Below are positions 17,709 through 17,892 of a stretch of DNA of 64,000 bases, in pieces. Numbering within the stretch: the stretch's first letter is position 1; every line of letters starts with the position of its first letter. Source of the DNA: Escherichia coli. Lineage in GTDB: Bacteria > Pseudomonadota > Gammaproteobacteria > Enterobacterales > Enterobacteriaceae. Where the stretch lies: the NCBI RefSeq assembly GCF_003334255.1, contig NZ_QOWU01000001.1. One strand, given 5' to 3'. The notes under the pieces are model-generated. The model made no database searches and was not told the DNA's origin. It saw only the letters and a program-made list of their open reading frames with translations. The position numbers were made by a program, and so were the translations under genes.

Positions 17709-17892
17709 GCCGCATCCGGTATGTAACGCCTGATGCGACGCTGACGCGTCTTATCTGGCCTACACGCTGCGATTTTGTAGGCCGGATAAGCAAAGCGCAT
17801 CCGGCATTCAACGCCTGATGCGACGCTGGCGCGTCTTATCAGGCCTACACGCTGCGATTTTGTAGGCCGGATAAGCAAAGCGCATCCGGCAC
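17709..17892. repeat. BIME/REP cluster: two tandem 85-bp units plus a partial third
   Basis: Near-identical direct repeats 17711..17795 and 17796..17880, each containing REP palindromes (gcctgatgcgacgctg.cgcgtcttatc.ggcctac). Confidence 0.85.

Follow-up and report, generated by a model that had tools for sequence, protein, structure and literature searches.

A tandem REP array assigned to the BIME-2 type in the araA–araD spacer of Escherichia coli and its variation in unit number

REPs are imperfect palindromes of 30–40 nt whose stem carries a conserved tetranucleotide, GTAG or CTAC, at its foot (PMC3333891). In the nomenclature of Gilson, Bachellier and Hofnung, as outlined by Ton-Hoang and colleagues in 2012 (PMC3333891), BIME-2 elements combine z2 and y REPs in multiple tandem copies, and how many BIMEs are arrayed in tandem at a particular locus differs among strains. 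At the DNA level, BIMEs bind gyrase, Pol I and IHF (PMC3333891). In transcripts, REP hairpins stabilise the upstream mRNA by forming barriers against exonucleolytic decay and also work as transcription attenuators (Newbury et al. 1987; Khemici and Carpousis 2004; Espeli et al. 2001; cited through PMC12306157), and an effect of REP arrays on mRNA stability and on the relative expression of the flanking cistrons is established for the family (PMC12306157). The BIME between araD and araA of strain MG1655 has itself served as an experimental substrate of the REP-associated transposase TnpA-REP, which cleaves it and recombines it in vitro to multi-REP products, and models of BIME amplification have been put forward by the same authors (Ton-Hoang et al. 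2012, PMC3333891). Earlier publications already cover the class of element, the variation of its copy number between strains and the locus itself.

Here we analyse the corresponding spacer in a 64-kb stretch of E. coli DNA (hereinafter the window). As a whole, the observations are very probably best explained by a BIME-2-type array that changes by entire units, would share the roles of the REP family and differs between strains as an inherited polymorphism.

The spacer and its REP array

On the plus strand the window codes for araB (14492–16192), araA (16203–17705), araD (17905–18600) and polB (18675–21026), all four of which score far over the NCBIfam cut-offs in a profile search. The L-arabinose isomerase gene, araA, is recovered by the equivalog model NF002795 with 897.9 bits against a cut-off of 622, and matching E. 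coli records also annotate araA at the corresponding gene, while the L-ribulose-5-phosphate 4-epimerase gene, araD, is recovered by TIGR00760 with 449 bits against 389.1. The TAA stop codon of araA (17703–17705) and the araD start enclose an intercistronic spacer at 17706–17904, which has the length of 199 bp given in the preliminary description; a Shine-Dalgarno motif, AAGGAG, can be read from the sequence at 17894–17899 on the plus strand, 5 nt 5′ of the ATG. A scan found neither a promoter-like nor a terminator-like site in 17706–17904, so the spacer would be co-transcribed within the araBAD message, in keeping with the earlier placement of the repeats inside that transcript. On the same scan we rejected both an internal araD promoter and an intrinsic (Rho-independent) terminator in the spacer. 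Beyond araD, the gap to polB holds a terminator-like hairpin with a T-rich tail on the minus strand (18631–18657), and no such site was reported on the plus strand 3′ of araD.

Nearly all of the spacer is occupied by a single array at 17711–17891, for which Tandem Repeats Finder reports a period of 85, 2.1 copies, 94% matches, no indels and a score of 327. A second repeat search agrees, returning two copies at 17711–17795 and 17796–17880 with 94% identity; the near-identical direct repeats that had been described at these positions were thus recovered by both searches. The two units, on the plus strand, differ at five of their 85 positions (unit positions 10, 13, 14, 34 and 46), and an adjacent 85-nt repeat with 80 of 85 positions matching cannot be of chance origin. 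It is also the sole array with an 85-nt period in the window. An 11-nt partial unit, CGCATCCGGCA, follows at 17881–17891 (plus strand) and supplies the arm that closes the last y-type REP. The partial third copy noted in the preliminary description is accordingly present, but it ends 3 nt before AAGGAG and does not run into the araD ribosome-binding site. At its other end the array abuts the araA stop with a truncated REP remnant (17706–17721, plus strand), which comprises only a GTAG and the right arm of a y-type REP, CCGCATCCGGTA, and matches the 3′ arm found in the complete y-type REPs (17796–17806 and 17881–17891).

Each unit is built of two palindromes of different REP types in opposite orientation. 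The first z-type (z2-like) REP, GCCTGATGCGACGCTGACGCGTCTTATCTGGCCTAC, lies at 17728–17763 on the plus strand with CTAC at its 3′ foot, matches the REP motif with one mismatch and has a predicted hairpin of −17.1 kcal/mol (z = −5.2). It is followed by a y-type REP, GTAGGCCGGATAAGCAAAGCGCATCCGGC, at 17777–17805 (plus strand) with GTAG at its 5′ foot and a predicted hairpin of −14.3 kcal/mol (z = −3.75), which matches the motif exactly on the minus strand (17777–17790) and thus has the orientation opposite to that of the z-type. In the second unit the z-type (z2-like) REP forms an inverted repeat at 17813–17848 (plus strand; −21.7 kcal/mol, z = −4.46) that contains ATCAGGCCTAC at 17838–17848, and the y-type REP lies at 17862–17890 (plus strand; −14.3 kcal/mol, z = −2.85); the latter fits the motif without mismatch on the minus strand (17862–17875), and its stem ends 3 nt 5′ of the araD Shine-Dalgarno motif. 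The linkers between the palindromes measure 13 nt (17764–17776) and 7 nt (17806–17812). Structure prediction, which the preliminary description had suggested as a check, thus gives four stable hairpins of −14.3 to −21.7 kcal/mol, all of them devoid of T-tracts, while the spacer with short flanks (17690–17920) folded as RNA reaches −99.1 kcal/mol with z = −4.4.

Where 0.38 matches to the REP signature CTTATCMGGCCTAC would be expected by chance, the window has 11, four of them in the araA–araD spacer. The 11 matches fall into five loci, mostly as convergent pairs, and tandem amplification is seen at araA–araD only. The four further REP/BIME loci (12340–12381, 34123–34136, 45277–45316 and 58712–58755) comprise three convergent pairs and one single element, none of them tandem.

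Set against the described REP classes, the palindromes, two in each unit, carry the REP signature, in agreement with the REP palindromes noted in the preliminary description: there are four of 29–36 nt, each flanked by CTAC (17760–17763 and 17845–17848) or GTAG (17777–17780 and 17862–17865), and the motif matches alternate between the strands, starting at 17750 (+), 17777 (−), 17835 (+) and 17862 (−). In their 3′ half the z-type copies agree with the Stern-type consensus given in PMC12306157, (g/a)CG(c/t)CTTATC(c/a)GGCCTAC. Two REP types alternate, one with CTTATC(A/T)GGCCTAC in a 36-nt palindrome that ends in CTAC and the other with CTTATCCGGCCTAC in a 29-nt palindrome that begins with GTAG. 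The z2 type is the longer form, GCCTGATGCGACGCTGGCGCGTCTTATCAGGCCTAC, a string that unit 2 matches exactly, and the z member is putatively z2 and not z1. Like BIME-2 elements, the spacer thus shows alternating inverse y and z2-like REPs with short linkers in tandem near-identical copies (2.1 copies at 94% identity), the number of which varies between strains (alleles of 1, 2, 3 and 5 units across 5,426 genomes). We find no substantive difference from BIME-2: the window has two units where MG1655 has three, and the array opens with a truncated REP after the araA stop. BIME-1 elements, which are single-copy combinations of a z1 and a y REP having a long, conserved L linker, frequently with an IHF site, were rejected as an alternative because the element is tandem and multi-copy, and the linkers of 13 and 7 nt are likewise too short for the L motif. 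By its sequence features, the spacer is hence assigned to the BIME-2 type, with a putative z2 member. For annotation, it is better labelled a BIME-2/REP array than left as an unexplained duplication.

Unit number among strains and species

Alignment to the araA–araD spacers of other E. coli, which had also been suggested earlier as a check, reveals lengths and unit numbers different from those of the window. In MG1655 (araD 65855–66550, araA 66835–68337) the spacer is 284 bp with three units, exactly the length given in the preliminary description, which had put the K-12 spacer at about 284 bp and roughly one unit more than here. K-12 GM4792 (CP011343.2; araD 65855–66550, araA 66750–68252) has a spacer of 199 bp and is identical to the window over 491 bp. 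In O26:H11 strain 11368 (araD 67742–68437, araA 68606–70108) the spacer of 168 bp consists of one unit and a 54-bp G-rich insert, and in S103EC (araD 70418–71113, araA 71228–72730) it is 114 bp with one unit.

Comparison of the individual units reveals how these alleles are related. Unit 1 of the window is identical to unit 1 of MG1655 and unit 2 to unit 3 of MG1655; units 2 and 3 of MG1655 differ from each other only at unit position 54, where unit 2 of the window has A and unit 2 of MG1655 has G. The K-12-type alleles thus form the series u1-u3 (window and GM4792), u1-u2-u3 (MG1655) and u1-u2-u2-u2-u3 (a record labelled TOP10), and the cleanness of this series indicates that whole internal units were lost or gained. 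The array therefore gains and loses entire 85-bp units via events among the near-identical distal units. Repeats of 85 bp that are nearly identical are expected to change in this way when they recombine unequally or slip, and we posit that the unit changes might stem from unequal recombination or replication slippage, with TnpA-REP as a possible helper; recA, slippage and TnpA-REP are candidate drivers in vivo.

The laboratory records of K-12 disagree with each other, with two units in GM4792, three in MG1655 and five (u1-u2-u2-u2-u3) in those labelled TOP10, Stbl4 and XL10-Gold. The five-unit records have neighbouring accessions (CP080620.1 for TOP10, with the spacer piece at piece coordinates 4151–4604, CP081008 and CP081009). 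The TOP10 strain is described as a carrier of an ara-leu deletion, and the intact araC and araBAD of CP080620.1 are unexpected for a strain of that name. These discrepancies reflect either real changes on a laboratory timescale or problems of assembly or labelling.

To survey the wider population we used 5,426 complete E. coli genomes, counting for each query the genomes in which a single place covered 80% or more of it. The two-unit query (window) was covered to this extent in 3,300 genomes, the three-unit query (MG1655) in 5,262, a synthetic five-unit query in 5,266 and a query for the insert allele with short flanks in 1,566. About 1,962 genomes (36%) have three units, 1,566 (29%) have one unit with the unrelated 54-bp insert, about 1,734 (32%) have one or two units and four have four or five, the percentages being those of a database in which clonal lineages are over-sampled. 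The remaining 160 or so (3%) have a disrupted or deleted spacer, one of them by IS621 inserted in a REP, and 27 of these gave no match even to a one-unit query composed of the araA 3′ end, the unit and the araD 5′ end. An exact one-unit count by the one-unit query was non-discriminating, as its pieces were joined across extra units. The split of the one-or-two class comes from 98 evenly spaced informative rows of the two- and three-unit rankings, 21 with two units and 10 with one, corresponding to about 21% and 10% of genomes. The locus is therefore strain-variable in copy number, as had been proposed, with alleles of one, two, three and rarely five units in addition to the insert allele.

Among the sampled rows, two units are found in O157:H7 records, one unit with the insert in O26, O111 and O104:H4 records, three units in K-12 and BL21(DE3), and one unit in an O127:H6 record and several human clinical isolates. 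As the 114-, 168-, 199- and 284-bp alleles track the sampled lineages, they offer a possible small typing marker. The difference in copy number between the window and K-12 is probably an ordinary inherited polymorphism of lineages, and length differences between strains at this site can be read as ordinary BIME copy-number polymorphism of little importance beyond annotation.

Across 77 Enterobacteriaceae species the araA–araD spacer ranges from 47 to 284 nt and has a stable fold in every one, with a median z of −3.8 against dinucleotide shuffles and 82% of values below −2 (two loci with a mis-called araA stop, L060 and L069, were left out of the folding statistics). The hairpin families differ between the genera: a single REP-like hairpin occupies the spacer of about 47 nt in Enterobacter, a REP pair is found in Citrobacter and Salmonella, G-rich CCCTCTCCC...GGGAGAGGG palindromes occur in Klebsiella, Kluyvera and Phytobacter, and BIME-2 units in Escherichia. 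This distribution is compatible with selection for a hairpin between the two genes as well as with plain tolerance of mobile palindromes. Within Escherichia, the strain MOD1-EC7003 (Escherichia sp.) has a 284-nt spacer of its own, with 3.1 copies of an 85-nt unit at 97% internal identity. In place of the E. coli linker, ACGCTGCGATTTTG, two of the three MOD1-EC7003 units contain ACGTTCCGGTTTTG and the remaining one contains ACGTTTCGGTTTTG; in E. albertii only one unit is present, and its linker is similar. As the units are closer to their neighbours in the same genome than to their counterparts in other species, they would have been amplified or homogenised locally and not inserted repeatedly, which points to independent amplification or concerted evolution of the MOD1-EC7003 array.

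The array in the araBAD message and rival readings

Intra-operon REPs that act as stabilisers or attenuators are exemplified by malE–malF. The araA–araD array resembles such elements in presenting stable hairpins without T-tracts between co-transcribed genes, but the likeness of araBAD to them is one of position and predicted structure only. By analogy with the family, we suggest that the element, transcribed within the araBAD mRNA, would fold into its four hairpins, which might serve as barriers to 3′-to-5′ exonucleases and as partial transcription attenuators. Through such action the araBA portion of the transcript would be favoured relative to araD. In the DNA, BIME-2 elements could additionally provide sites of gyrase binding and cleavage. 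A literature search on araBAD with REP and mRNA returned nothing specific to the araA–araD locus, and one on REP with tmRNA returned nothing useful.

A further REP-related mechanism, ribosome stalling with translational down-regulation, concerns REPs at most 15 nt from a stop codon (Liang, Rudd and Deutscher 2015, as related in PMC12306157). The araA–araD spacer is like that system, as presented there, in having a REP array 3′ of a stop codon. However, the araA stop ends at 17705 and no complete REP stem begins before 17728, 22 nt on, with only the truncated remnant lying closer; at this distance REP-induced stalling of the kind so described probably does not apply at araA.

Two alternatives question what the array in the window is. 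The two units might be an assembly collapse of a three-unit array, given that short-read assemblers can collapse tandem repeats, that the 85-bp units are a spot where assemblies may miscount copies, that GM4792 and MG1655 differ by one unit though both are K-12, and that the five units of three laboratory-strain records from one accession series imply that some database alleles may be artefacts. Yet two units are found in about a fifth of the complete genomes, from many laboratories and including the sampled O157:H7 records, and even a full three-unit array is only 255 bp, which ordinary read pairs can span. Moreover, the closest genomes to the window (99.8–99.9% identical over 24 kb) show an unbroken alignment across the spacer, so the two-unit allele is common to them and hence inherited; a collapse is thus extremely improbable. 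The spacer might also code for a separate small RNA of the nucleoid-associated, HU-binding naRNA4 family. The Rfam model naRNA4 (RF02564) matches 17780–17845 on the plus strand, spanning the first y-type and the second z-type REP, with 60.2 bits, marginally over the gathering score of 59.5. However, the same stretch on the opposite strand (41.7 bits) and the neighbouring 17687–17760 (31.3 bits) score as well, and the scan for promoters found no promoter-like site within or close to the spacer. The naRNA4 family stems from REP325, a different REP cluster (PMC12306157), and its model would therefore recognise any y/z2 REP pair. The spacer is like naRNA4 in the sequence and structure of such a pair, but it lies at a different locus, within an mRNA. 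We accordingly consider a distinct small RNA very unlikely and read the match as a family resemblance instead of a separate gene.

Another alternative accepts the BIME-2-type array but makes its copy number an adaptive knob, with the units setting the AraA:AraD ratio and lineages selected for different settings. Such a setting could matter since a shortage of AraD leads to toxic L-ribulose-5-phosphate, and were copy number to alter the araA:araD expression ratio, the locus would be a case of natural repeat-number tuning inside a classic operon. The tracking of lineage by the alleles (two units in O157:H7, one and the insert in O26, O111 and O104, three in K-12 and BL21) and the stable hairpin in the spacers of all 77 species, drawn from different repeat families, speak for this proposal. 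Neutral inheritance, however, predicts the association with lineage; K-12 laboratory records with two, three or five units come with no reported arabinose phenotype; and REP-type elements accumulate in many gene 3′ regions, such that their occupancy of this spacer does not imply selection. We therefore hold an adaptive knob to be unlikely. The same doubt attaches to its broader form, in which the stem-loop between araA and araD would be a selected, conserved decay barrier or attenuator setting AraBA:AraD, with lineages filling the role by single REPs, REP pairs, BIME-2 arrays or G-rich CCCTCTCCC...GGGAGAGGG elements and the unit number in Escherichia acting as a heritable expression dial. We prefer the reading of the array as a BIME-2-type element with inherited variation in unit number, and the effects on araBAD proposed above would be those that its REP-family membership suggests.

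Insertions in the spacer and other features of the window

Two kinds of insertion are found in the spacers of other strains. In strain RM13322 (NZ_CP050498.1, piece coordinates 2792–4070) an IS621 element of the IS110 family lies inside the second z-type REP, one junction being ...ATCAGGCCT followed by TGTATTATCC... and the other ...ACAGTAT followed by CTACGCGCTG, with CT at both ends. REPs are the natural target of IS621. The window contains the uninterrupted sequence, ATCAGGCCTAC, at three positions, 17838–17848, 12368–12378 (minus strand) and 45280–45290, where 0.02 would be expected by chance. In the insert allele, the 54-bp G-rich palindromic insert TTGTTTTCCCCCTCGCCCCTTTGGGGAGAGGGCCGGGGTGAGGGGAAACGACCTCTC comes after one BIME unit and replaces the further units (at about 535–610 of the piece from 11368); a search of the 64-kb window found no copy of it. 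The insert resembles the CCCTCTCCC...GGGAGAGGG elements in the same spacer of Klebsiella, Kluyvera, Phytobacter and some Enterobacter (loci L018, L023, L044, L051, L056 and L072 of the cross-species set), and these elements look like boxC-type repeats.

Elsewhere in the window, a tandem repeat of 15 nt with 8.5 copies (25320–25446) lies inside a minus-strand ORF at 25176–26012 and encodes the five-residue run GATPD GATPD GANPD GANPD GANLD GAILD GATVN. The ORF is intact, codes for 278 aa and is situated between rluA and djlA; its K-12 counterpart we take to be yabP/yabQ, annotated as a split pseudogene. Rfam matches over the gathering score further include the Leu operon leader (817–966, plus strand), SgrS (6946–7172, minus strand), a TPP riboswitch (8929–9028, plus strand) and the ES003 sRNA (54884–54936, minus strand), all of them expected for this region of the chromosome.
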